Program-made: the position numbers and the translations under genes | Assembly (NCBI GenBank): GCA_965248925.1 | Contig: CBDFLE010000005.1 | Location: 128,001 to 192,000 of the forward strand | DNA from: Candidatus Multivoradales bacterium | GTDB taxonomy: Bacteria > Acidobacteriota > Thermoanaerobaculia > Multivoradales > J023 | Direction: 5' to 3' | DNA length: 64,000 bases | The notes under the pieces: model-generated | What the model was told of the DNA's origin: nothing | Seen by the model: the letters and a program-made list of their open reading frames with translations, nothing else | Databases searched by the model: none | In this document: positions 12,698 to 24,865 of the stretch, piece after piece | Layout of the letters: the number at the start of each line of letters is the position of its first letter | How positions within the stretch are numbered: the first letter of the stretch is position 1

Positions 12698-12955
12698 CTA
12701 TTCGCCGTCCAAGGTCTCGGCGAGGCTGTTGGCGGTCAAGATCCGCTTGGCCCAGCGCCGGAGTTGTTTGCTGTTCGCTGCTTCGATGCGCCGCCGAGTG
12801 ACCTCGTCGACGTCACCGAATCGACTCTCGACAAGGTCGATCAGCAGTTGTGCCTGCCCCTGCTTCCTGCCCTTCGTCAGGCCTTGTTTGAGGCCCTGCT
12901 CACGCCCTTCTCGGAGCCACTGTGCAGGCCATTGTGCGACGGTTTCACGGAGCAT
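12698..12955 (-). CDS. Putative intragenic small protein (RpnS-like antitoxin, 85 aa) in frame within rpn copy 1
   Basis: AGGAGGT-acgcaac-ATG inside the gene, just before the C-terminal domain MLRETVAQW...LDGE. Confidence 0.65.
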   Translation of the reverse strand: MLRETVAQWPAQWLREGREQGLKQGLTKGRKQGQAQLLIDLVESRFGDVDEVTRRRIEAANSKQLRRWAKRILTANSLAETLDGE

Positions 12956-13672
12956 GTTGCGTACCTCCTGCAAATCTTCAAGCACCGGTATCTCGGCGTC
13001 TGGGTAGCGAGCTGGCAGCAAAGAGTGCTGCAAGAAAGCCAAGAACGTGCGACTCAGCCGCGGATCGGCTATGGCCTTCAACCTCTCGACCAATCTTAGC
13101 GCATGGCGCCGCAACTGTCCCGCGCCGCTGCTGCGCTCCAGGTCGAAGAGGATCGACGCCAGGTTGTCGCTGGCTGCCGACGGCGAGGCGCGATGCTCGT
13201 CGATCAGCAAGTAGCGCAGCCGTGGCCGATAGTCGACGCAGTCGTCCGGACCGGGGGTGATCAGCTCGGCGACATCGCTGGGCGCGGTCCATGGCCGACT
13301 GCCATTGTAGATCACCAGCGGCACCACCGGGGGCAGGGTCTCTCCCGGCTTGACCTGGCCGCCGCGGAGTAGCCCTTCGTAGAACAGGCCGAGATAGGTC
13401 ATCAAGCGAAGAGCCATCCAGGGCTCGTTGCGCGACTGGAACTCGAACAACAGGTAGATGTAGATCCACCCCAGGCGGTGGCGCAATCGCCACAGCAGGT
13501 CCTTCTCACGCCGTGCCAGGCGATCGGAGATTTCTACTTCGGGGGCTTTCTCCAGCGTCGAGAAGTCGAGCCCCTGGATCCAATCCCCGCCGCCATGGGC
13601 GCGCAGCAAGTCTTCCACCATCGGTCGGTGAGAGAAAAGCAGGCGGTATGCGCTGTCGTGTTTTTCTGCCAC
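12698..13672 (-). CDS. Rpn family recombination-promoting nuclease (YhgA/Transposase_31, PD-(D/E)XK), copy 1
   Basis: HDSAYRLLFS, REKDLLWR, YIYLLFEFQS, MALRLMTY, LPPVVPLVIYNG; GTG start after AGGAGG; DUF4351-like C-terminus. Confidence 0.88.
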   Translation of the reverse strand: MAEKHDSAYRLLFSHRPMVEDLLRAHGGGDWIQGLDFSTLEKAPEVEISDRLARREKDLLWRLRHRLGWIYIYLLFEFQSRNEPWMALRLMTYLGLFYEGLLRGGQVKPGETLPPVVPLVIYNGSRPWTAPSDVAELITPGPDDCVDYRPRLRYLLIDEHRASPSAASDNLASILFDLERSSGAGQLRRHALRLVERLKAIADPRLSRTFLAFLQHSLLPARYPDAEIPVLEDLQEVRNMLRETVAQWPAQWLREGREQGLKQGLTKGRKQGQAQLLIDLVESRFGDVDEVTRRRIEAANSKQLRRWAKRILTANSLAETLDGE

Positions 13673-13844
13673 TGTCCCTGACCTCCTTTGGTCAAGGACA
13701 TAGACGCAAAACGTTGGTGGAATCTTGCAGGGATCTTGCGACAGGGCGTCGGAGCCTGCTCTAATCGGCTCAGTGGGTGGACTCTTCTGAGCCATTCGAG
13801 AGGGGGCTGGCACCGGCCGAGAAGCAGCCAGCGGGAGGGTAGCT

Positions 13845-16800
13845 ATGCACAAGATCTTCATCAGCTATAGCCGAAGCTCAGCCAGTGACGTGGCCCAAGA
13901 CCTGGACAGGCAGCTAAGCGCCGAGGGTTGTGAAGTTTTTCTCGATACCAAGATGCCGCCCGGCGCGATCTGGCCGACTGCACTGAAGGCAGCGATCGAC
14001 GCCGCCGATGCCATGATCCTGCTGCTGAGCGACGGGGTCGAGAACAGTGACTTCGTCAAATGGGAGGTCGATCATGCCCGCGGCCGTATGGGCCAGGGTG
14101 CGGCCTTGAGTCTGATTCCCATCGAGGTCGACTTTCAGGGGCAACTGGACCCGCGCTTGAAGGCCAGGCTGGGGAGCATCCAGACCTGCTCGTGGGGTCG
14201 TCAGCAGGGCTTCGATGTGCTGCTCGACTTGATCCGCTCCGGCCTTGGCATTCCGGAGGTAGATGCGGTCGCCGAGACCTACCGGGCATGGACACTCGCC
14301 AACCCGCAGCCGGTGCGCTTGATCGGGCTTGGCCCCGACACCAATCTACCTCTGGAGTCGATCTACGTGCCGCTGCGGGTTTCGAGGTGCGAGCGCGATG
14401 GTTTGCATCAGTTGGCGGGTGGTGCGATGTCTGGCCGCGATGTTCTTGGCCGCGGTGCAGAGGAGTTACAGGTTGATTCTCTCTTCCGTGAGGGTGTCAG
14501 CGCCAGTCGGCATACCCTGCTGCTCGGCGAACCCGGCTCCGGCAAGACCACGGCATTGATAAAACTCTATGCTCTGTGCCTCGAGGCGGCCGTTGAGAAT
14601 CTCGGCCTGGCTGGTGGTACATTGCCGGTACCTGTGCGCTTGCGCCACTTGAGCGCCGATGATCTTGGCCGGCCGCTGGGGGAAACCCTTGATCGGGCCC
14701 TGGGCAAACGCTTCACCAAGCCGCCGCTGCCCAGCACCCTCGATCGTCTGTGGCGCGCCGGTCGTCCCTTGCTGCTACTGCTCGATGGTCTCGATGAGAT
14801 CACCGACGACGCCTTGCGGACCGAGGTGTGCGACTATCTGGCATGCCAGCTTGGGGAGGCCGCCGGCAGCAGCGTCCGGGCGGTAGTGACTTGCCGTCGG
14901 GCCTATTCGCGATCAGTAGAGCTGGGCGCAGATTTTTGCACCTTGGAAGTGCGACCGCTCGGACCCAAAGAGGCCGACGACCTAGTTAAGTTGTGGTTCC
15001 GGGCGGCCTCCCACACCATGCCCGACTACTCAGCCCAGCGTGCCCTACGGCGCTCCCAACAGCTGCGCCGGGCGCTGCAAGACAGCGTCAACGAAGGAGC
15101 CCAACTGCGGGTGATCGCTGGCTGGCCACTGATGCTGACCCTGCTCTGTGTGGTGATGGCGAAGCGTGGTGAGATACCGCGCCGACGGGTGGAGTTCTAT
15201 CAACGCTGTGTGCGGCTGTTACTCGAAGAGTGGGGGCCACTCCAGGAGCGCGGTCACAAGGCACCCATCACTACCGATCGAGCGTTGCAGGCCCTGCGCC
15301 CATTGGCCTATGAACTGCGTTCCAATCCTCGCGGTGAGTTGCGCCGGCTACAGGTCGTGCGCTACATCCAGCAGGCTTTGCCGCGGGGTGCGGCGCTGCC
15401 AAGCCGAGTGCTCGAGTGGCTGCGTTGCGAGGCCGGCGTGCTCGATGAGCTGGCGCCACATCGCTTTGGTTTTACCCATCTGGCGCTCGAGGAGTACCTT
15501 GCAGCCGAGCACATCGCCGAGCAGCCCGATGATCAGTTGCTGCTGGACCTCGTCGGCCGCTTCGACGGTGAGCGCTGGTACGAGGTCGCTCAGCTACTGG
15601 TGGCACTGCCCGGCCGCGGCATGTTTGCCCGTCTGATGGAACAGCTGCTCGATGGACCAGCTCTGCTACAACAGGCAGACCTATTGAGACTCTGCATTGA
15701 AGAGGCCGACGAGGTCGATGTAACTCCATTCCTCAAGCGCCTGGCCGACCCAAATCTCGATGCCACTCGCCAGGCCGCCCTATTGCGGCTGATGAGTGGC
15801 CAGCGGGATCCGCGCCTGCTAGAGCAGGCGCGGGCCCTGGCCAGTGGCGAGAATGTTGCGGTAGTCGCTCTCGCCGAACGCTTGATGAATTTGGCTGAGC
15901 AGGCGACTGATGGGTCGACCGAGCGATGCGTTTACCTGGTAGCCCACTCAGCTGATGCAGAACCAGCGGCGGAGGTGGCCAAGGCTCTGCGCCGCGGCGG
16001 CGTGCGGATCTACGAGGTACCGCCCGATGAGCTGTGGTTGGACCATTTCGACCGCATCTGCGAAAACTGTGGTGGCGGCGTCGTGGTGTTGGTCAGCGGC
16101 GGCGAGCCGCCGTGGAGAGACCCCGACGTGGCCGATTTCCTGGAGATTTTCTCCAACCTCGAAGGGCGTGCGCTAACCCTGGCCCGGTTGCCCGGCGCAC
16201 CGTCAGGTTGGGAGCGACTAGAAGACGCTTGGGCCGAGCGTTGCGGCCCGGTGGTCGATCTAACCATCGCCTGTGGCCCAGAGCAGGTCATCGCCCTCGT
16301 TGCCTCTCTGGCTGGCACCGGTCGGCGGGCGCCCGAGACTTCCGTCGGGAGCAGCGATTCAGAGTTCCGTGCCAGGGCCGTCCAGCGGCTCTTGGTGGAG
16401 CCGGTCACCGGCATGCGTTTCCTGTGGGTTGATGGTGGCGAGTTGCGCATGGGTACAGACGAGGAGAGCTGGCCAGGTTTCGAAGATGAATTCTTCGCTG
16501 CCGCCCGGCCGGCCCATGGGGTAGAAGTGTCAGGTTTCTGGCTGGCGGAGACGCCGATGACTAACCGGCAGTACAAGTTTTTCATGGAAGCAGATGAGTT
16601 CGAAGGCAAGCCGCCCGGGCGGTGGACGGATAGGCGCTTCTCAGCCGAAGATCAACCGGTGGTGGGGGTGAGTTGGAGCGCGGCGAGGAGCTGCGCCGCT
16701 TGGCTAGGGCGACAGCTGGGGCAGGGGCGCGATGCTGATCTACCTAGTGAAGCGCAGTGGGAGTGGGCGGCTCGGGGCAAGGATGGGCGAATCTATCCTT

Positions 16801-17174
16801 GGGGTGATGCCGAGCCCACCAGCGAGTTGGCTTGTTTCGGGCTTGACTGGCAGGAGGATCGGCCAGCATCGGTCGGCTCATATCCGGCAGGCCGGGGCCC
16901 CTTCGGTCATCTCGATGTGGCTGGTCTGGTTTGGGAGTGGTGCCTCGATCACTTCGATGGAGGCACTTACAGTCAGCGGTATGGGGCCCCGCCAGAGCGT
17001 GATCCGATTGTCTGGGGCAAGATTGAAAATACTGACGAGGTACGTGTCCTCCGGGGCGGCGGCTGGCCCGATCCCGCGCCGGACCTGCGCTCTGCGATCC
17101 GCTTCAGGTTCCCGGCCAGGAGCCGGTACTCGGTTATCGGCTTTCGTGTGGCCGTCTCTCCCCCGAGCCTTTGA
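13845..17174 (+). CDS. DGR target 1: NLR-like TIR - NACHT - TIR-like - FGE-sulfatase/C-type-lectin-fold protein
   Basis: KIFISYSRS...FVKWEV TIR; Walker A GEPGSGKT; Walker B LLLLDGLDE; FGE motifs LPSEAQWEWAARG, YPWG, GLVWEWC, RVLRGGGW, IGFRV; 3' end is VR1. Confidence 0.9.
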   Translation: MHKIFISYSRSSASDVAQDLDRQLSAEGCEVFLDTKMPPGAIWPTALKAAIDAADAMILLLSDGVENSDFVKWEVDHARGRMGQGAALSLIPIEVDFQGQLDPRLKARLGSIQTCSWGRQQGFDVLLDLIRSGLGIPEVDAVAETYRAWTLANPQPVRLIGLGPDTNLPLESIYVPLRVSRCERDGLHQLAGGAMSGRDVLGRGAEELQVDSLFREGVSASRHTLLLGEPGSGKTTALIKLYALCLEAAVENLGLAGGTLPVPVRLRHLSADDLGRPLGETLDRALGKRFTKPPLPSTLDRLWRAGRPLLLLLDGLDEITDDALRTEVCDYLACQLGEAAGSSVRAVVTCRRAYSRSVELGADFCTLEVRPLGPKEADDLVKLWFRAASHTMPDYSAQRALRRSQQLRRALQDSVNEGAQLRVIAGWPLMLTLLCVVMAKRGEIPRRRVEFYQRCVRLLLEEWGPLQERGHKAPITTDRALQALRPLAYELRSNPRGELRRLQVVRYIQQALPRGAALPSRVLEWLRCEAGVLDELAPHRFGFTHLALEEYLAAEHIAEQPDDQLLLDLVGRFDGERWYEVAQLLVALPGRGMFARLMEQLLDGPALLQQADLLRLCIEEADEVDVTPFLKRLADPNLDATRQAALLRLMSGQRDPRLLEQARALASGENVAVVALAERLMNLAEQATDGSTERCVYLVAHSADAEPAAEVAKALRRGGVRIYEVPPDELWLDHFDRICENCGGGVVVLVSGGEPPWRDPDVADFLEIFSNLEGRALTLARLPGAPSGWERLEDAWAERCGPVVDLTIACGPEQVIALVASLAGTGRRAPETSVGSSDSEFRARAVQRLLVEPVTGMRFLWVDGGELRMGTDEESWPGFEDEFFAAARPAHGVEVSGFWLAETPMTNRQYKFFMEADEFEGKPPGRWTDRRFSAEDQPVVGVSWSAARSCAAWLGRQLGQGRDADLPSEAQWEWAARGKDGRIYPWGDAEPTSELACFGLDWQEDRPASVGSYPAGRGPFGHLDVAGLVWEWCLDHFDGGTYSQRYGAPPERDPIVWGKIENTDEVRVLRGGGWPDPAPDLRSAIRFRFPARSRYSVIGFRVAVSPPSL
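17053..17168 (+). repeat. DGR variable repeat VR1
   Basis: 116 bp colinear with TR 18310-18425; 14 mismatches, all at TR adenines. Confidence 0.96.
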
Positions 17175-17204
17175 TTCTTGTTCATTGGGTGTCTTTTCTG
17201 CGGG

Positions 17205-17227
17205 GTCCAGGGGCAGAGCCCCTGGAC
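17205..17227 (+). promoter_or_regulatory. GC-rich hairpin/cruciform downstream of VR1 (DGR target-recognition element)
   Basis: GTCCAGGGGC-AGA-GCCCCTGGAC, perfect 10-bp stem with 3-nt loop; near-identical hairpin follows VR2. Confidence 0.85.
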
Positions 17228-17303
17228 TCATTTGAAGCGGGTTGTCGACATATCTGGCGAAGTTTGTCAAAGAACTCTGCCAAAGTTGTAAGCTCGTTGC
17301 TCT

Positions 17304-17900
17304 ATGAAGCTCTCCATTCGCGAGACGGCGACCGTCCTGGGCAAGAGCGAGCGCCAGGTGCGCTACATGATCCAGCAAGGTGGGCTGAAGGCAGTCAAAC
17401 ATGGCTCTAGGTGGCGCATCGACGCCGATCACCTGCCTCTGGACGAAGCCCAGCGTCGGGCGCTGGCGCGGCGCATCGACTCGGCTCGGCAAGCCTTCGA
17501 GAAGGGCCTGGCGCCGGCCGAGAAAGCGGTCGGTGAAAGGCGCAAGACCTACACCTTGAACAACCTGGTGGCGTTCGGCACGGGGGCAGAGATTTATCGC
17601 GAGATGCTCTCTTCGCTGGGCTTTGGCGATGTTGCATGCGGCCGGCTGCACGAAGCTCTGATGCTGGTGAGTCGGGGCTTTCACAGCTTCCACCCCAAGG
17701 AGAAGGCGGCCTGTTATTGCGCGGCGCGCTGCGCCGCCGCCACGGCGGTGGGGGAACTTCTCCTGCGGGCGGCTGATGGGGTGGAGCACGGTTGGGCCAG
17801 GCGCCTGGAGGAGGAACTCATTCCCAAAATCGCTGGCCTGGTCGCGGCCAATGAAAAGCGCTCTCGTCGGCACCGCTTCGGCCGTCGCGACGAACTCTGA
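17304..17900 (+). CDS. DGR-associated protein: excisionase/MerR-like HTH fused to four-helix-bundle (IVP/Avd-like) domain
   Basis: LSIRETATVLGKSERQVRYMIQQGGLKAVKHGSRWRI HTH; C-terminal helical domain (LNNLVAF...SRGFHS...EKAACYCAAR). Confidence 0.7.
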   Translation: MKLSIRETATVLGKSERQVRYMIQQGGLKAVKHGSRWRIDADHLPLDEAQRRALARRIDSARQAFEKGLAPAEKAVGERRKTYTLNNLVAFGTGAEIYREMLSSLGFGDVACGRLHEALMLVSRGFHSFHPKEKAACYCAARCAAATAVGELLLRAADGVEHGWARRLEEELIPKIAGLVAANEKRSRRHRFGRRDEL

Positions 17901-17907
17901 GTGCTGC

Positions 17908-18246
17908 ATGGAGCACGCCCCTCTGCTCCGCTCTACCATGGGTCTGTGCGCAGATCTGTTGGAGAGCCTTGAAGCAATTTCCGGCTCGACTCCCCTGCGT
18001 CGCCACCTGGCCGAGGTGGTGCTGCGGTTGCTCGACCACGTGACCTTGGCTGTCGAGCGCCACGACCGGCTCGAAAGCCTGCGCGAGGCCGATGCGGCGC
18101 TAGCGGTGTTGCGGGTTCATCTGACCCTTGCGCTCGAGCTTGAGCTGCTCGATGAGGAAGCCTTCATCGAGCTTGTGGAGCAGGCCGATGGGATTGGACG
18201 GCAGATCGGCGGCTGGTTGCGCCAGCTCGGGCGGTACAGCGAATGA
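17908..18246 (+). CDS. avd: DGR accessory variability determinant Avd (four-helix bundle, 112 aa)
   Basis: L..AD..L..LR..L.LA.EL and IGRQIGGWL ending; immediately upstream of TR and RT. Confidence 0.85.
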   Translation: MEHAPLLRSTMGLCADLLESLEAISGSTPLRRHLAEVVLRLLDHVTLAVERHDRLESLREADAALAVLRVHLTLALELELLDEEAFIELVEQADGIGRQIGGWLRQLGRYSE

Positions 18247-18309
18247 GCGGCGGTGCGGTAAGCTGCGGCGGGCAGACCCGATATCCCGTTTTTGCTTTTG
18301 ATCTGCTCT

Positions 18310-18425
18310 GGGGCGGCGGCTGGAACAATCCCGCGCAGAACCTGCGCTCTGCGATCCGCAACAGGAACCCGGCCAGGAACCGGAACTCGAATATCGGCTT
18401 TCGTGTGGCCGTCTCTCCCCCGAAC
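18310..18425 (+). ncRNA. DGR template repeat (TR)
   Basis: AAC/AAT-rich copy (9 Asn codons, 23 A) of both VRs, located between avd and RT. Confidence 0.96.
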
Positions 18426-18552
18426 ACGCTGACCGCGAGGCACCGTGCAGGGTCTTGTCCTGATGTCTATCGAGGCGTCGAATATCTTGAGCCGGCCCGT
18501 TCTGGTAGGTCCGAAAAGGCCGAAGGTCCGGGTCGGCAACTATGAGTTGCCG

Positions 18553-19554
18553 ATGAGGCGTTGGGGCAACCTCTTCGCCGCAGTCGCCGCTCCGCTATTT
18601 CTGTGGAGGGCCTGGCGACGGTTCCGGCGCGGCAAGCGCAAGCGGCCCTCTGTGCTTGCCTTTGAGCAGCGCGCGGAGCGCGAGGTGTTGCTGTTGGCAC
18701 GGCAGCTCGATGCTGCTACTTATTGCCCTGGGCAGTTCCGCAAGCTCCTGCTACGGGAGCCCAAGCGGCGCTTGATCGCCGCCGCGCCAGTGCGTGACCG
18801 GGTAGTGCATCACGCGATCCACGGTGCCTTGGCGCCGCTTCTCGACCGAGGCCTTGTCGACTCGACCTTCGCCTGCCTGGAGGGCCGAGGTAGCCATCGC
18901 GCGGTGCTGGCCTGTTGGCAGAGCATGCGGCGTTGGCGCTATGTGCTGGCGCTCGACATTCGGCACTACTTTCTCAGCATCGACCGCGGGATTCTCTTGC
19001 ACGAGGTGATGGCACGGCGGATCAAGGACTGGCGGCTGCTGGAACTGCTCCGCACGGTGGCCGGGAGCGGCGCCGGGCTCTACCGCGGCCGCCAAGTCGT
19101 CGAGTTACTGCAACTGCCAGCAGGCTTTCCTCCCATCGGGTGCGGCTTGCCGATTGGCAACCTCACCAGTCAGTGGTGGGGTAATCACTACTTGTCGGGC
19201 CTCGATCACTACATCAAGCGGCAGCTGAAGGTGCCGGGCTACCAGCGCTACATGGACGATCTGACCCTCTTCGCCGACTCGCGTTCTCAGCTCCTGGAGG
19301 CACGGCAGGCGATCGCAGAATGGTTGCTTTGGCATCGCAAATTACTCCTCAAGCGGCCGGCCGCTGAGCCTCGTTCGACCCGCCGGCCGCTGAGCTATCT
19401 CGGCTACCGGGTGGGGCGCGGTGGAGTGGCGCCGCTCCGAGGGGTCCTGCAACGCCTGGAGAGGCGGGTGGCTGAGCGTCTGCACAGCGGTGATGCCGAG
19501 GCGGTGGAGAGGACTCTCGCGGCTTACAAAGGGGTGGTCACTTTTGTCGGTTGA
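18553..19554 (+). CDS. DGR reverse transcriptase (333 aa)
   Basis: EPKRRLIAAAPVRDRVVHHAI, LDIRHYFLSID, GLPIGNLTSQ, QRYMDD, YLGY; no maturase or endonuclease domain. Confidence 0.95.
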   Translation: MRRWGNLFAAVAAPLFLWRAWRRFRRGKRKRPSVLAFEQRAEREVLLLARQLDAATYCPGQFRKLLLREPKRRLIAAAPVRDRVVHHAIHGALAPLLDRGLVDSTFACLEGRGSHRAVLACWQSMRRWRYVLALDIRHYFLSIDRGILLHEVMARRIKDWRLLELLRTVAGSGAGLYRGRQVVELLQLPAGFPPIGCGLPIGNLTSQWWGNHYLSGLDHYIKRQLKVPGYQRYMDDLTLFADSRSQLLEARQAIAEWLLWHRKLLLKRPAAEPRSTRRPLSYLGYRVGRGGVAPLRGVLQRLERRVAERLHSGDAEAVERTLAAYKGVVTFVG

Positions 19555-19650
19555 AGATGACAATAGACTAATTATCGGAACTTATGTCGACAACAGATCG
19601 GTATTTGTCTACAACAAGCAGGGAGATGCTGAACTTGTTGACAAAAAGGG

Positions 19651-22600
19651 TCAAATTTCGTCCAAGAACACCGCCAGGGGCTCCGCCCCTGGACCCCGAA
19701 TGCACCGGAACAAGGCAGACAATGAGCAAGAATCAAAGGCTCGGGGGAGAGACGGCCACACGAAAGCCGATATTCGAGTTCCGGCTCCTGGCCGGGAGCC
19801 GGCGCGGATCGCAGAGCGCAGGCTCCGCGCGGGACTGCCCCAGCCGCCGCCCCGGAGGAACCTGGCATCACCCTCCTTCAGGTCAGGAAAGATCTCCCTG
19901 TACGCATCGTCCTTCTCGAACTCCCGAAGGTCGGGGTGGTCGCTATCGAGGCACCACTCCCACACGTTGCCGGCCAGGTCCAGGTGCCCATAGGGCCCGG
20001 CACCGGCCGGGTAGGCGCCTACGGGTGTGGGGTGTTCTTGGTGGTTGGCGAAGTTGGCCAGCTCGGGTGTGGGCTTGTCTTTCCCCCACGGGTAGTCACC
20101 TTTCGGTGCATCGGCTGCGGCTAGCCATTCGGCGCTGGTGGGCAGGTGGACCTGCTCGTGGCGCTGCTTGGCCAGCCAGGCGCAGTAGGCCATGGCCTCG
20201 AACCAGGACACGCCCACCACGGGTCGGTTGGGGGTGGTCAGCTGTGCCTGCCAGTTCTCGGGGGAGGTCCACTTCTCCTGCTGGCGTCGCTCCCAGCCAT
20301 CGTCGTCCCACCAGCGGCGGGATTCGTAGCCGCGCTCCTGGTCGACGAACACCAGATATTCATCCACCGTCACCGGATAGCGGCCCAGGCGCAGCCCCTC
20401 GACCGCAGAGACCGGTGGCCAGTCGGGGCGCCGCAGGCGTGGATCGCCGGCTCGGCCCAGGGCCGCCGCAACTTCGAGTCGCTTCTTGATGCCGATCTTG
20501 GCGGCGCCAGCCTTGGTGAAGATCTTGAGTGAGCGCTTCAGGGCCCGCTTGTATTCAGCGGTGACCGCCGACGGAGGCTGGTAGCCATAGGCTTTCACCG
20601 GCTCCAACATGGCACCGACCGCGGCCGCTACGCGGGCATCAGCGGCCAGGCTGGTGTCGTCGCCGCGAAGTGCCAGCAGTCTCCCGAGTAAACGGTCCAC
20701 CCGCCGGTCGCCGCCGCTGTCGAGCAGAGTGCCGGGGAGGATGGCCAGAGTCTCGCGCCATTGTGGATCTTCCAGGTGCTGCTCAACGATCGGCCACCAG
20801 TCGTCCTCGGGATTCTCGCTGCCATCGCCGAGCGAGGCGAGCTGCTTGGCTGCCAGAGCTTCCTGGAAAGTTAGATGCCAGAAACGCAGGTTGCGGCCGG
20901 CGAGTTCTTCGATAATGCCGCTGCTCGCGCACTCGAACTCCAGCCATCGCTTGGCCAGCTGGCGGCGGTCGGCGGTGGCCTTCAGCGCGGTGTAGAAGCG
21001 AAGCACCACCGGTTCGATGGCCAGCGCCGCGTCCTCGAGGCCGATCAATGACAGCTTGCCTCCCTCCTGATCCATCATCCGTAGTGCCAGCGCAGCCAAG
21101 GCGCTCCAGGCGAAGTGTTCCGTGAATCCTGCTGCCTTGCGCTGCTTGGCCCGCGCTTGGAGCAGCCAACGCAGCACCGCTGAGTAGACTCGCGAACGCC
21201 CTTCGGGTAGCTCTTGCTCGTTCCAGTGAATGACGCATAGGCAGGTCAGCATCACCGGGTTGGCGGCCAGGCGGCGTACTCGCGGGACGTCGATCATGGC
21301 GGAGCGCAGGGTCTCTTGGTAGCGCCTGACTTCACCGCTCAGCTGGGTGTGGATATCTAGACCGTGAAGAGCCTCTACCCACAGCTTCAGGAAGCGCCCG
21401 ATCTGGCCATCGTCGAAGGGCTGAATCTTGGCCACGGTGAAGCCCATGGCGAGGAGTTCGGCGGTCTGCACAGGACGACTGGCGACGGTGATCGGCCCCG
21501 GCCACTGAGCGGCGGCATCGGCCAGAACATCGAGCAAGCGGTGGCGCAGGCTCTGCTCGCCGACTTCGTCGAGACCATCGAGCAGAAGCCAGGCATCGCC
21601 CGCTTCGAGCAGCTGGCGCCAGGCTTGTCGCTGGCAATTGGCCGGGTTGGCGCGGGCGCTGGCGATCAGCAGGTCGAGCAGCCGGTCGCGGTCGTCACGG
21701 TGTCCGGGGGTGTCAGCCTGAGCGGTAAGGAGCTTCGCCAGCTGTGCGAAGCGTAGATAGATCGGTACTTTGGCTGGCTGGTCGGCGGGCAGAGCGAGAA
21801 AGTGCTGCCGCCAAGTGTTCCCACCAGGGCCCCGCAGGCCATGGCCGTCGCGGGCCAGCAGGGTGGCGGTGAGGCGCAAGAAGGTGGTCTTGCCGGCGCC
21901 AGGTTGGCCTTCGATCAGCAGCCGCGGGTGAGCGGCCAGCTGGTCTGCGAGGGGTTCGCCACCGGCACGCTCGAAATGCAGCAGTGCTACCTCCTGGTCC
22001 CGCTCGCTGGCCGTGGATCGGCTGAGCAGTGGGGTGTAGAGCTTCTCGATAGGACGAAGAATGGCCTTGCGGGCTTGGCCAGCTCGCGAGGCGATGCCGC
22101 GGATTTTGAGCAGGCCAAGGTCGGCGATGACCCCGTCGAGATAGCAAGGCAGATCGAGCCTGGGCGCGGGGCTCGGGCGGCGCCGTGAGCCGCGGGAAGA
22201 CTCGCTCGCACGGATTTCCACGCCAGCAGCACCTGGATCGGCGCCGAAGGTTGAGTTGTGCAGCAGCCGCATCTCGCCGCCGACCTGCGGCGTGCGCACT
22301 CGTGGCCAGATCCGCACTGCACCGTCCTCATCGATCTCCCCCCAGGTGTAACCCACCCGGCGTTCCTCTTGCTTGGAGCCGTAGTGCTCGAGACCGAAGA
22401 GCGACGGGGATTGGCAGGCGAGGCGTCCGCCGATGTCGCGCTCAATACCGGGCTGGTGCAGGTGGCCGTACAGGCATAGGGCAAATCTGTCGGGCGGACA
22501 GATACTGGCCTGAAACTCAGCACGGGCGGCTGGGGAGAACCAACCGGGCGGTTGGTGGAACATCAGCAGCGCCTGGGCGCAGTCGTCCAGCACGCTCAGC

Positions 22601-23274
22601 GGCGAGCTGCTGTTGGGTGGTGCCAGTGCGTGGTGGAGCTGCTCGACGGAGATCTCCAGGCGGTTAGCGAACTCGTCATCTGTCCTATTCTGCCGATACT
22701 GGCGCCAGGTGCTGTTGAGACCCACAACTGTCAGGGGAAATCCTGTGGGCGACACGGTGACTCGCAAGTCACCAAGGAAGTGCGAGAGGTGGAGCTCAGC
22801 CCATTTCGTGCTCACCACTGCCGGCACTAACCGCCGCTCTAGCCAGGCCAGGTACTCGGTGAAGAGAGGCTGCAGGAAGTCGGCATTGGGTTGCGACCCC
22901 CAGAGTTCGTCGTGCAAGCTGCGGAATGCCGGGCCATCATCATCCAACACTGAGAACTTGTAGACGGCGGTAGGCCTGGCGAGGTCGTGATTGCCTGGTA
23001 CCGGTACCACCAGCGGCCGGTCGCCGAAGGGTGCTAGCCAGCTGGTGACCTGATCGAGGAAAGCGTCAACCAGTTTGAACTGCTTCTGCTGGCCGGAGAA
23101 GCTGAGATCGCCGCTGAACAGCAGCAGATGAGGCGGGCCGAGCTGCTCGGCCATTGCGATCAGGTCGGCTTGTAGCTCGTGCTGAGCCTGCCACCAGTGC
23201 TCGCCACCGCGGCAGCCTGCGTGTAGATCTGAGAAGTGCAGCCAACGCACTGGCCGCGGTCGAGATCGGGGCAT
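19651..23274 (-). CDS. DGR target 2: NLR-like metallophosphoesterase - NACHT - FGE/CLec protein; frameshifted in VR2 (stop would be at 19733 without the deletion)
   Basis: WLHFSDLH, SGDL, PGNHD, GHLH calcineurin-like motifs; GQPGAGKT; LLLDGLDE; LAGNVWEWC, FLRGGGW; GGAGG RBS. Confidence 0.9.
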   Translation of the reverse strand: MPRSRPRPVRWLHFSDLHAGCRGGEHWWQAQHELQADLIAMAEQLGPPHLLLFSGDLSFSGQQKQFKLVDAFLDQVTSWLAPFGDRPLVVPVPGNHDLARPTAVYKFSVLDDDGPAFRSLHDELWGSQPNADFLQPLFTEYLAWLERRLVPAVVSTKWAELHLSHFLGDLRVTVSPTGFPLTVVGLNSTWRQYRQNRTDDEFANRLEISVEQLHHALAPPNSSSPLSVLDDCAQALLMFHQPPGWFSPAARAEFQASICPPDRFALCLYGHLHQPGIERDIGGRLACQSPSLFGLEHYGSKQEERRVGYTWGEIDEDGAVRIWPRVRTPQVGGEMRLLHNSTFGADPGAAGVEIRASESSRGSRRRPSPAPRLDLPCYLDGVIADLGLLKIRGIASRAGQARKAILRPIEKLYTPLLSRSTASERDQEVALLHFERAGGEPLADQLAAHPRLLIEGQPGAGKTTFLRLTATLLARDGHGLRGPGGNTWRQHFLALPADQPAKVPIYLRFAQLAKLLTAQADTPGHRDDRDRLLDLLIASARANPANCQRQAWRQLLEAGDAWLLLDGLDEVGEQSLRHRLLDVLADAAAQWPGPITVASRPVQTAELLAMGFTVAKIQPFDDGQIGRFLKLWVEALHGLDIHTQLSGEVRRYQETLRSAMIDVPRVRRLAANPVMLTCLCVIHWNEQELPEGRSRVYSAVLRWLLQARAKQRKAAGFTEHFAWSALAALALRMMDQEGGKLSLIGLEDAALAIEPVVLRFYTALKATADRRQLAKRWLEFECASSGIIEELAGRNLRFWHLTFQEALAAKQLASLGDGSENPEDDWWPIVEQHLEDPQWRETLAILPGTLLDSGGDRRVDRLLGRLLALRGDDTSLAADARVAAAVGAMLEPVKAYGYQPPSAVTAEYKRALKRSLKIFTKAGAAKIGIKKRLEVAAALGRAGDPRLRRPDWPPVSAVEGLRLGRYPVTVDEYLVFVDQERGYESRRWWDDDGWERRQQEKWTSPENWQAQLTTPNRPVVGVSWFEAMAYCAWLAKQRHEQVHLPTSAEWLAAADAPKGDYPWGKDKPTPELANFANHQEHPTPVGAYPAGAGPYGHLDLAGNVWEWCLDSDHPDLREFEKDDAYREIFPDLKEGDARFLRGGGWGSPARSLRSAIRAGSRPGAGTRISAFVWPSLPRAFDSCSLSALFRCIRGPGAEPLAVFLDEI
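19674..19692 (-). promoter_or_regulatory. GC-rich hairpin/cruciform downstream of VR2
   Basis: Minus strand CCAGGGGC-GGA-GCCCCTGG, 8-bp stem with 3-nt loop. Confidence 0.85.
19739..19853 (-). repeat. DGR variable repeat VR2 (carries a 1-nt deletion)
   Basis: 115 bp vs 116-bp TR; 11 substitutions plus 1 deletion, all at TR adenines. Confidence 0.95.
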
Positions 23275-23325
23275 ATTCTTGTTCCTCCCAGTGGATCAGA
23301 GAGGATTGTAGCCGATCAAGTCTTG

Positions 23326-23571
23326 CTATTCGCCGTCCAAGGTCTCGGCCAAGCTCGTGGCGGTCAAGATTCGTCTGGCCCAGCGCCTGAGCTGTCCGCT
23401 GTCCGCGGCCGCGATGCGCCGCCGAGAGACTTCGTCGACGTCACCGAAGCGGCTCTCGATGAGATCGATCAACAGTTGCGACTGCCCTTGCTTCAAGCCT
23501 TGCTTGAGTCCCTGCTCACGCCCTTCTCGGAGCCACTGTGCAGGCCATTGTGCGACGGTTTCGCGGAGCAT
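23326..23571 (-). CDS. Putative intragenic RpnS-like small protein (81 aa) in rpn copy 2
   Basis: AGGAGGT-acgaaac-ATG internal in-frame start, conserved with copy 1. Confidence 0.65.
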   Translation of the reverse strand: MLRETVAQWPAQWLREGREQGLKQGLKQGQSQLLIDLIESRFGDVDEVSRRRIAAADSGQLRRWARRILTATSLAETLDGE

Positions 23572-24288
23572 GTTTCGTACCTCCTGCAAATCTGTGAGCG
23601 CCGGTATCTCGGCGTCTGGGTAGCGAGCTGGCAGCAAAGAGTGCTGCAAGAAAGCCAAGAACGTGCGACTCAGCCGCGGATCGGCTATGGCCTTCAACCT
23701 CTCGACCAATCTTAGCGCATGGCGCCGCAACTGTCCCGCGCCGCTGCTGCGCTCTAGATCGAAGAGGATCGACGCCAGGTTGCCGCGGGTTGGCGACGGT
23801 GAGGCGCGGTGTTCGTCGATTAGCAGGTAGCGCAGCCGTGGCCGATAGTCGTCGCAGCCATCTGGACCTGGAGTGATTAGCTCGGCGACATCGGTGGGCG
23901 CGGTCCAGGGTCGACTGCCATTGTAGATCACCAGCGGTACCACCGGAGGCAGAGTCTCTCCTCGCTTGATCTGGCCGGCGCGGAGTAGCCCTTCGTAGAA
24001 GAGGCCGAGATAGGTCATCAAGCGAAGAGCCATCCAGGGCTCGTTGCGCGACTGGAACTCGAACAACAGGTAGATGTAGATCCACCCCAGGCGGTGGCGC
24101 AATCGCCAAACCAGGTCTTTCTCGCGCCGTGTCAGGCGATCGGAGATTTCTACTTCGGGGGCTTTCTCCAGGGTGGAGAAGTCGAGCCCCTGGATCCAAT
24201 CCCCGCCGCCATAGGCGCGCAGCAGGTCTTCCACCATCGGTCGGTGGGAGAAAAGCAGGCGATATGCGCTGTCGTGTTTTTCTGCCAC
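23326..24288 (-). CDS. Rpn family recombination-promoting nuclease, copy 2
   Basis: Near-identical paralog of 12698-13672; GTG start after AGGAGG. Confidence 0.88.
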   Translation of the reverse strand: MAEKHDSAYRLLFSHRPMVEDLLRAYGGGDWIQGLDFSTLEKAPEVEISDRLTRREKDLVWRLRHRLGWIYIYLLFEFQSRNEPWMALRLMTYLGLFYEGLLRAGQIKRGETLPPVVPLVIYNGSRPWTAPTDVAELITPGPDGCDDYRPRLRYLLIDEHRASPSPTRGNLASILFDLERSSGAGQLRRHALRLVERLKAIADPRLSRTFLAFLQHSLLPARYPDAEIPALTDLQEVRNMLRETVAQWPAQWLREGREQGLKQGLKQGQSQLLIDLIESRFGDVDEVSRRRIAAADSGQLRRWARRILTATSLAETLDGE

Positions 24289-24385
24289 TGTCCATGACCT
24301 CCTTTGGTCATGAACAGGGACGGAAAACTGTGACGGGATCTTGCGGGAGATCGGCGACAGGGCGTCAGAGCCTGCTCTACTCGGC

Positions 24386-24865
24386 TCAGTTGGCGGTCTT
24401 TTTCGGCCCGTCGCCGCCGCTTTTTGCCTCGCTCGCCGCCGCGTCGCCAAACACTTCGCGGGCTTTGTTCTTGAGCCGCTGCTGCGCGGCCTCGACTTCG
24501 CGTAGGGCGTCGCGTAGTTGCTCGAGTTCGTCGGCGCGGACCTCCAGACCTTCGCGGATAAACAGAGCAGCAGCCTCGGAACGGCTCTTGACGGCGCCGA
24601 TCGCCACCCAATCGTCGAGTCGCTTCAGAGTATCTCCGTCGACCCGCACCATCACCACCTGATCGCGCTGTTTCTTGCCCATCTTCTCGACGCTGTCTTT
24701 GAGGTCGGGGGAGACACAGACTACTTTTACCCTGGCACCTTCGCCGAGGTCGAAGCCGAGGTCGAGGTCGGCGAGGTCGTGCTCTAAGTCGATGCCGTGA
24801 TGGGAGAGACGTTCCGAGATGCGTTGCAGGATGCTGCCGAGGTCGAAGTGAATCTTGTTGGCCAT
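24386..24865 (-). CDS. Ribbon-helix-helix (CopG-like) domain protein with coiled coil
   Basis: VVMVRVDGDTLKRLDDWVAIGAVKSRSEAAALFIREGL; AAGGAG RBS. Confidence 0.7.
   Translation of the reverse strand: MANKIHFDLGSILQRISERLSHHGIDLEHDLADLDLGFDLGEGARVKVVCVSPDLKDSVEKMGKKQRDQVVMVRVDGDTLKRLDDWVAIGAVKSRSEAAALFIREGLEVRADELEQLRDALREVEAAQQRLKNKAREVFGDAAASEAKSGGDGPKKTAN

Follow-up and report, generated by a model that had tools for sequence, protein, structure and literature searches.

The prototype DGR is that of the Bordetella phage BPP-1, mtd-avd-TR-brt (Guo 2011, PMC3240598; Handa 2018, PMC6182149). In this element the VR is placed at the 3' end of a gene with a CLec fold, a GC-rich inverted repeat comes after a 3' element that only the VR has, and about 50% of the adenines are changed (PMC3240598, PMC6182149). 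The BPP-1 DGR has one target, a tail-fibre receptor-binding protein. A second group, the clade 5D DGRs, commonly has two targets that combine CLec and STAND domains (Doré 2024, PNAS, PMC10907252). Insertions and deletions are also on record. Of 372 DGRs, 25 have them, with 11 frameshifting and 74% adjacent to AAC (Wu 2018, NAR, PMC5758913). The cDNA made by bRT-Avd carries single-bp indels at 0.1% (Handa 2018, PMC6182149), and a DGR repaired a reporter VR that had an 18-nt gap (PMC12875486).

The locus described here lies in a window of 64,000 nucleotides from Candidatus Multivoradales bacterium, the whole stretch of DNA that was analysed. It is very probably a complete chromosomal DGR, in which a block formed by HTH_17, avd, TR and RT is placed between two convergent NLR-like (STAND) sensor genes whose C-terminal FGE-type C-lectin-fold domains end in VRs, both overwritten from the TR separately (Table 1). 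The architecture is already published (Doré 2024, PMC10907252), as are AAC-adjacent indels (Wu 2018, PMC5758913).

Table 1. Features of the locus, in window coordinates
Feature	Position	Strand	Description
YhgA-like (Transposase_31) gene, left cassette flank	12698..13861	-	
Target gene 1	13845..17174	+	1109 aa, intact; TIR_2 (4-116), NACHT (224-387), FGE-sulfatase/CLec (859-1103)
VR1	17053..17168	+	14 differences from TR, every one at a TR adenine
VR-only 3' flank (IMH-like)	17167..17195	+	common to VR2, absent after TR; holds the target 1 stop codon (17172-17174)
GC-rich hairpin after VR1	17203..17229	+	perfect 10-bp core (17205-17214/17218-17227), 3-nt loop AGA
HTH_17 (excisionase-type helix-turn-helix) gene	17304..17900	+	198 aa; first gene of the core block
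Avd accessory gene	17908..18246	+	112 aa; Pfam bAvd match
Template repeat (TR)	18310..18425	+	116 nt, adjoins RT and Avd
Reverse transcriptase (RT)	18445..19554	+	369 aa, intact; alternative in-frame ATG at 18463
Target gene 2	19651..23274	-	1207 aa as it stands; Metallophos (11-275), NACHT (452-630), FGE-sulfatase/CLec (957-1161); frameshifted in VR2
GC-rich hairpin after VR2	19674..19692	-	8-bp core, loop GGA
VR2	19739..19853	-	115 nt; 11 substitutions at TR adenines and a 1-nt deletion
Second YhgA-like (Transposase_31) gene, right flank	23326..24450	-	same orientation as the left copy

Core genes and targets

The RT matches RVT_1 (E 3e-11), and its best solved relative is 8ub7 (E 1e-34, at low identity), which we take to be the BPP-1 enzyme. 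The RT segments RYMDD and PIGNLTSQ align with the corresponding motifs of 8ub7, and both the YMDD and the I/LGxxxSQ motifs are intact. The SQ motif marks the RTs of DGRs. The Avd protein reaches 41.9 bits with Pfam bAvd (cut-off 40) and 45 bits with NCBIfam DivGenRetAVD (E 1.1e-11), the latter under the curated cut-off of 80, a weak point of the DGR reading. The HTH_17 gene keeps its position in related DGRs. In the Atlas search its protein matched HTH_17 clusters only, and the PDB sequence search gave a single weak match, 4j2n (E 0.031). Sites of the TGTCGACA type at 17230-17300 and 19555-19650 are putative HTH_17 binding sites. A promoter scan of positions 17100-19800 returned no sigma-70-like site, none for the core block, which is a further weak point. 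Rfam gave no match in positions 13000-24000.

Each target has an effector-type domain at its N-terminus, a STAND NTPase in the centre and one CLec domain at the C-terminus, in the arrangements TIR_2-NACHT-FGE and Metallophos-NACHT-FGE. The VRs are placed at the 3' ends of these FGE-fold genes, the FGE-sulfatase match reaching the C-terminus in target 1 and the frameshift point in target 2. The C-terminal domain of target 1 matches the Treponema denticola variable protein 1 TvpA (2y3c, E 2.4e-5, over query residues 115-257), which shares with the targets the FGE-type CLec fold and DGR-variable residues in its C-terminal part. TvpA is a surface lipoprotein; at this locus the fold serves TIR- or phosphoesterase-NACHT proteins as sensor module. 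Anti-phage models matched the targets as TIR-like and phosphoesterase; PADLOC found no complete defence system, only a TIR-like, an RT and one PDC-S60 domain match.

The order Avd, TR, RT is shared with BPP-1, as are the VR at the 3' end of a CLec-fold gene and the VR-only element followed by the GC-rich inverted repeat (PMC3240598, PMC6182149). On the other hand, the present element resides in a chromosome and not in a phage, its two targets lie on opposite strands and are cytoplasmic NLR-like proteins, and the block includes the extra HTH_17 gene. The hairpin also differs from that of BPP-1 in starting about 35 nt past the end of the TR homology and in its 3-nt loop. As here, the DGRs of clade 5D have two targets with a single C-terminal FGE-type CLec domain and a central NACHT-type STAND NTPase (PMC10907252), and the legend of Fig. 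2 in Doré 2024 lists TIR and PF00149 metallophosphoesterase, both present at this locus, among the N-terminal effector-type domains. Several DGRs per large genome and mobile-element genes at the locus borders are likewise common to both (PMC10907252). It is by its target architecture that the locus resembles clade 5D (PMC10907252). The accessible text of Doré 2024 makes no mention of an HTH_17 gene in the core block for clade 5D (PMC10907252). The convergent two-target layout was found in 7 of the 12 related loci examined and in a second DGR of the same genome.

The two flanking YhgA-like genes encode proteins with 89% identity. The case for such genes as regular partners of DGRs is weak, with PF04754 lying within 10 kb of a DGR-type RT in 4 of 65 matches across 24 genomes of the family, two of the four coming from this window.

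Adenine-restricted differences between the TR and the VRs

The TR contains 23 A, 41 C, 35 G and 17 T over 18310-18425. All 23 adenines are placed at codon positions 1 or 2, nine codons are AAY, the last of them on the boundary at 18423, and mutation cannot turn any TR codon into a stop codon. The number of possible variants is 1.48e12; with the adenines so placed and stop codons out of reach, each VR can encode about 1.5e12 peptides.

The ungapped alignment of VR1 (17053-17168) with the TR (18310-18425) contains 14 mismatches in 116 nt, all 14 at TR adenines (hypergeometric P = 2.0e-12), exactly as the original prediction had it; the peptide strings it gave for TR and VR1 are also the translations of these segments. 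For VR2 the same prediction of adenine-only change holds for the substitutions, 11 of 11 at TR adenines, and missed a 1-nt deletion that makes the repeat 115 nt and not 116. When the deleted A is counted as a twelfth changed site, P is 2.0e-10. One listed change, AAC>GCC, was a misreading of AAC AGG AAC becoming -GC CGG CTC, and AAC>AGC at 18340 had been left out. Altogether 14 of the 23 TR adenines are changed in VR1 and 12 of 23 in VR2 (deletion included), to be compared with about 50% in BPP-1 (PMC3240598, PMC6182149).

The positions that are not A in the TR are identical in 93 of 93 cases in each VR, that is, no substitution in 186 sites. The statement that no such position differs is therefore correct for substitutions within 18310-18425, but not once 4 further nt upstream, from 18306, are included: at 18309, on the edge of the repeat, T in the TR stands against C in both VRs. 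At the other end an A>G at 18424 is common to VR1 and VR2; TR and VR diverge completely there, and the change could reflect the repeat boundary instead of mutagenesis. The 8-Mb genome contains no further VR of this TR.

Repeats of this kind could in principle be ordinary paralogous sequence kept alike by gene conversion at the DNA level, with an adenine bias due to chance or composition. Nothing beyond the presence of the repeats speaks for this, and its probability is negligible. The probabilities for all differences falling on A (2e-12 for VR1, 2e-10 for VR2) rule it out; the direction is fixed, as only the non-coding copy beside RT and Avd keeps the adenines; and the same pattern is found in two other DGRs of the genome, while related loci show it in 20 TR-VR pairs.

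A DGR that homes into both targets fits the distribution of the changes. Nine TR adenines are altered in both VRs, five in VR1 only, three in VR2 only and six in neither. At the nine common sites the new base is the same in three, close to the one third expected by chance. Directly upstream of the VRs the two target proteins are 38% identical, which together with the full match to the TR at positions other than A indicates homing driven by the TR and not a recent gene duplication. The data support that both VRs were overwritten from TR 18310-18425 in separate events. The original prediction had called this overwriting independent and recent; the shared bases and the upstream identity bear out the first, and the second does not follow, as zero changes in 186 sites are not convertible into time.

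The similarity of the two targets extends past the VRs, with 91% complementarity between 17107-17195 on the VR1 side and 19712-19800 in the repeat search. Both VRs are followed by a conserved target-only (IMH-like) flank of about 29 nt and then by a GC-rich inverted repeat, neither of which follows the TR. By homology to BPP-1, the TR would be transcribed, and RT and Avd would copy the TR RNA into cDNA with misincorporation opposite the template adenines. The cDNA would then replace the VR of either target, guided by the VR-only flank and the GC hairpin.

The deletion in VR2 and the frameshift of target 2

In the gapped alignment VR2 lacks 1 nt at TR 18360/18361, the AA of the AAC codon 18360-18362, so that TR and VR2 differ in length at an AAC codon. 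The missing base falls between window positions 19803 and 19804, and in the repeat search the two halves of the TR/VR2 repeat pair in different registers. The resulting frameshift replaces the last conserved strands of target 2 by an unrelated out-of-frame tail of 50 residues. The FGE match ends at profile position 240 of 255 in target 2 vs 254 of 255 in target 1, and the open reading frame now reads through the hairpin on the VR2 side. The canonical C-terminus and its stop codon are preserved in the other frame, which makes the deletion young relative to decay by point mutation.

The source is a draft assembly of 6 contigs, and for some long-read methods no consensus error is commoner than the single-base indel, so that the deletion might have arisen in sequencing or assembly, with target 2 really intact. 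This is very unlikely: each of 4 runs yields the same 3785-nt contig with no differing letter and no gap across 19755-20200, and the site is not a homopolymer. The 4 runs come from one sample, possibly the assembly's own data, and are therefore not fully independent.

Taken as genuine, the deletion probably makes target 2 a null allele, the frameshift leaving a lectin fold without its last conserved strands. Wu 2018 (PMC5758913) suggests that frameshifts may add diversity; the shift in VR2 removes conserved FGE/CLec C-terminal strands and shortens the Pfam match, so loss of function is the likelier outcome. As in that study's indel DGRs with two targets (PMC5758913), only one of the two is hit. 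The main text of Doré 2024 mentions no frameshift, indel or pseudogene, and its SI may show indels or the exact architecture (PMC10907252). The DGRec preprint (10.1101/2025.03.24.644984) has nothing on indels.

Most likely, one of the two adenine-templated bases of the AAC codon would have been lost by a slip or skip of the RT during the last homing; from a single sequence, RT slip, an error of cDNA integration and an unrelated mutation cannot be told apart. A further round of homing could in principle repair the frameshift. In one relative, L034, deletions of 1 nt and of 13 nt disrupt the two VRs. The convergent target of L034 also has its 1-nt deletion at an AAC codon, and in both this case and VR2 the canonical C-terminus is intact in the other frame. 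These two independent cases point toward a systematic loss of single bases at AA dinucleotides. That such loss is a regular error mode of this DGR clade, which switches NLR-like sensors off by frameshift and reversibly at the next homing, is unlikely.

Possible present activity and significance of the element

The original prediction went on to call the element probably still active. With RT, Avd and TR intact, it is plausible, as far as the sequence can tell, that the element is still diversifying. The Logan contigs (4 runs, 1 sample) contain exactly one allele each of VR1 and VR2, deletion included, and no variant contigs; rare variants are lost from contigs of this type, and the assembly itself may derive from this sample. 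In Doré 2024 diversification in situ was shown from 184 metagenomes, whereas the present data are contigs of one sample only (PMC10907252). The only additional contig on the TR, of 1234 nt and with 6 differing letters, was judged by eye to be the TR of the genome's second DGR and not a variant. No near-identical locus was found among the metagenome contigs (best RT 46-50% identical) or in the family, where the best RT from 24 genomes is 64% identical, and the 23-nt stretch invariant between TR and VRs had no exact match in the genome contigs, where the best RT is 50% identical.

The single allele per VR would also be expected of a genuine DGR that has fallen quiet or is decaying in the population that was sampled, its adenine-only pattern a trace of past homing and target 2 a pseudogene on the way out. 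We regard this as a serious possibility, somewhat on the improbable side. The frameshift of VR2 has not been overwritten, which argues against frequent homing at target 2; the two broken VRs of L034 indicate that such loci do decay; and Doré 2024 describes one locus without detectable diversification as well as unequal activity of the targets within a locus (PMC10907252). Against it stand the intact reading frames and motifs of RT, Avd, HTH and TR, the absence of any non-A substitution in the 186 VR sites, and the canonical C-terminus and stop of target 2, still intact in the shifted frame.

For annotation, the locus carries a warning: an ungapped comparison of TR and VR conceals the deletion, and target 2 would be given a false C-terminus of 50 residues. 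The frameshifted VR2 is also a natural experiment on whether homing corrects the errors it makes. Should single-base loss indeed be systematic, the element would create, next to binding diversity, immune sensors that vary reversibly between on and off, which might for example silence self-reactive variants.

To our knowledge, the class of DGR-diversified NLR-like sensors has had no bench test yet. The locus is a compact candidate for reconstitution: it combines an intact RT and Avd with an additional HTH gene, a single TR and two targets whose target-site elements are clear. It adds another well-preserved DGR to the class, described in 2024, that diversifies NLR-like immune sensors.

Adenine-specific change in the variable repeats

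A repeat search returned a sequence of about 116 nt in three copies. The middle copy is the template repeat (TR) of a diversity-generating retroelement (DGR), with 23 A, 41 C, 35 G and 17 T. The variable repeat of target 1 (VR1) aligns with the TR without gaps and carries 14 mismatches, 14/14 at TR adenines (hypergeometric P 2.0e-12). This bears out the original observation that VR1 changes at A alone, and the peptides first derived for TR and VR1 agree with the translations. The same strictness had been claimed for VR2, in target 2, where it holds for the substitutions while a frameshifting 1-nt deletion was missed, so that the observation as a whole is partly confirmed. Inverted repeats and a shifted alignment pair the two halves of VR2 with the TR in registers one base apart, and the gapped alignment shows that VR2 lacks one base of the AA in TR codon AAC (18360-18362). 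Apart from this gap, VR2 differs from the TR at 11 positions, each of them a TR adenine (P 2.0e-10, the deleted A being counted as a changed A site). The AAC>GCC change originally read in VR2 is an artefact of reading across the gap, since TR AAC AGG AAC becomes -GC CGG CTC. The sole non-A substitution near the repeats lies at 18309 (T in the TR, C in both VRs), one base outside the TR as first delimited.

The 23 TR adenines divide into nine changed in both VRs, five in VR1 only, three in VR2 only and six in neither; the nine shared sites carry the same new base in only three cases. Just upstream of the VRs the targets share 38% protein identity, and therefore the VRs were written separately from the TR and not copied from each other.

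Deletion in VR2 and possible present activity

Target 2 keeps the expected frame as far as '...LRSAIR' and continues with 50 out-of-frame residues, reading through the terminal hairpin until a stop at 19651. Its FGE-sulfatase match extends to residue 1161 and covers the profile up to position 240 of 255, compared with 254 of 255 in target 1. The alternative frame still encodes the canonical C-terminus and reaches its stop where target 1 does, and the deletion is therefore young compared with ordinary decay. Four public runs each supply a 3785-nt contig that carries the deletion and shows neither a differing letter nor a gap; the runs represent one sample, which may be the source of the assembly. 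The identical contigs argue against a consensus error, and as one sample they are not independent biology.

VR1 changes are evenly spread along the repeat, unlike those of VR2, where 10/13 TR-A sites 5' of TR position 18368 differ (counting the deleted one) versus 1/9 in 18375-18423 (Fisher p 0.0075, with the split point picked after seeing the data). This lopsidedness may stem from a subsequent partial 3' conversion tract, from selection or from chance.

The original interpretation is partly supported: independent overwriting stands, and present activity is unproven. The core genes are all intact and 0 non-A substitutions occur over 186 VR sites, both of which speak for activity. On the other hand, the still uncorrected VR2 frameshift and the single allele per VR in the contigs of the four runs count against frequent activity, although such contigs lose rare variants. 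Metagenome contigs, genome contigs and 24 family genomes yielded no near-identical strain of the locus, and the listing of sequencing runs contained none of RNA.

Components and surroundings of the cassette

Coordinates of the DGR locus and of features compared with it (G000, genome of the window; G009, another genome; L numbers, related DGR loci)
Feature	Position	Strand	Remarks
YhgA-like copies	12698-13861; 23326-24450	-; -	89% protein, 90.5% DNA identity over 1079 nt
Target 1	13845-17174	+	TIR_2, NACHT, FGE-sulfatase (domain matches)
VR1	17053-17168	+	repeat copy
11-mers with palindrome	17241-17251; 19584-19594	+; -	
HTH_17 gene	17304-17900	+	198 aa; domain match
Avd	17908-18246	+	domain match
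TR	18310-18425	+	middle repeat copy
Reverse transcriptase (RT)	18445-19554	+	domain match
Target 2	19651-23274	-	Metallophos, NACHT, FGE-sulfatase (domain matches)
VR2	19739-19853	-	repeat copy
Second DGR	G000:C6:4814692-4817399		same layout, two VRs; differences 11/11 and 16/16 at A
Third DGR	G000:C6:1659740-1662689 plus 1847039-1847164		three VRs, one 186 kb from the rest
L034 broken VRs	G009:C84 3233-3373 and 6396-6517		draft MAG, so assembly error possible
Palindrome, L041	227-234		
Palindrome, L044	254-261 and 318-325		
Palindrome pairs, L040	5620-5637 and 8395-8412		

The best solved relative of the RT is 8ub7 (E 1e-34, YMDD and IGxLTSQ motifs aligned), presumably the enzyme of the Bordetella phage BPP-1. 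At its C-terminus, target 1 has a domain that matches the Treponema denticola DGR variable protein (2y3c, E 2.4e-5). All 23 TR adenines occupy codon positions 1 or 2, and nine of the adenine-holding codons are AAY, the last at the 18423 boundary. Mutation can reach a stop from no TR codon, and about 1.5e12 peptides are computed to be reachable per VR. Both VRs are followed by about 29 nt of conserved flank and by a GC-rich hairpin whose loop is 3 nt long, neither of which is present after the TR; an arrangement of this kind directs homing in BPP-1 (PMC3240598). A search of the 7.98-Mb genome found no further VRs of this TR. The genome holds two other DGRs, the second being a paralogue of the window cassette (RT 40-42% identical, HTH and Avd present).

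Between target 1 and avd lies a gene for a protein with an N-terminal, excisionase-type HTH_17 domain and a helical C-terminal part without family assignment. Homologues 32-43% identical are found at the equivalent place in the second DGR and in L010, L031, L032, L034, L012, L041 and L044, with partial matches in L035 and L040. The gene is not named among the four accessory classes listed in Wu 2018 (PMC5758913); it could correspond to the 'MSL' class of that paper. The window has exactly two occurrences of an 11-mer with the palindrome TGTCGACA, one past each VR hairpin, at either edge of the HTH-avd-TR-RT block. L041 and L044 carry the palindrome a short way upstream of their HTH_17 homologues, and L040 has tandem pairs of it that flank the core inside target coding sequence, about 50 nt upstream of the expected start of each VR. 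The palindrome is a candidate operator for the HTH_17 protein.

On either side of the cassette stands a direct copy of a YhgA-like gene (Transposase_31, PF04754), and the 8-Mb genome contains no others. Homologues lie close to the DGRs of L034, L035 (two, one per side) and L010. Of 65 PF04754 matches in 24 family genomes, only 4 have a DGR-type RT within 10 kb. The two genes may delimit a composite mobile unit or offer a route to cassette loss by recombination.

Related loci and published systems

RT homologues at E <= 1e-20 occur in 12/24 family genomes, the best foreign match being 64% identical. Twelve related loci were examined, and repeat pairs were kept only if at least 75% of mismatches fell on one of A or T. 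Eleven loci gave 20 TR-VR pairs, strictly A-only in 10/20, a sample enriched for the A pattern because the filter selects for such pairs. The window-like layout, with an upstream target on the same strand and a convergent downstream target, is found in 7 of the 12. A further set of loci, in which L042 is a repeat of L012, added two pairs. In L034 the convergent target lacks 1 nt at an AAC codon, again a frameshift, and the other VR lacks 13 nt between CTTCCG direct repeats near its 3' end.

Wu 2018 (PMC5758913) reports TR-VR indels in 25/372 DGRs, 11 of them frameshifting and 74% adjoining AAC, and gives template slippage as their source. The adenines changed here, 14/23 in VR1 and 12/23 in VR2, compare with the roughly 50% of adenines substituted in cDNA synthesised in vitro, in which single-bp indels amount to 0.1% (Handa 2018, PMC6182149). 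A reconstituted DGR fills an 18-nt gap in a reporter VR (2026 study, PMC12875486), and therefore a frameshifted VR is repairable in principle. The boldest reading of the data, and an improbable one, is that adenine-linked single-base loss serves as a regular, reversible off-switch of DGR-diversified sensors.

Targets such as these NLR-like (STAND) genes were proposed as antigen sensors of conflict systems, with in situ diversification demonstrated in one organism (Doré 2024, PMC10907252). The window locus stays wholly within the DGR descriptions of Doré, Wu, Handa and the 2026 study, and is a further example of an already described DGR class.
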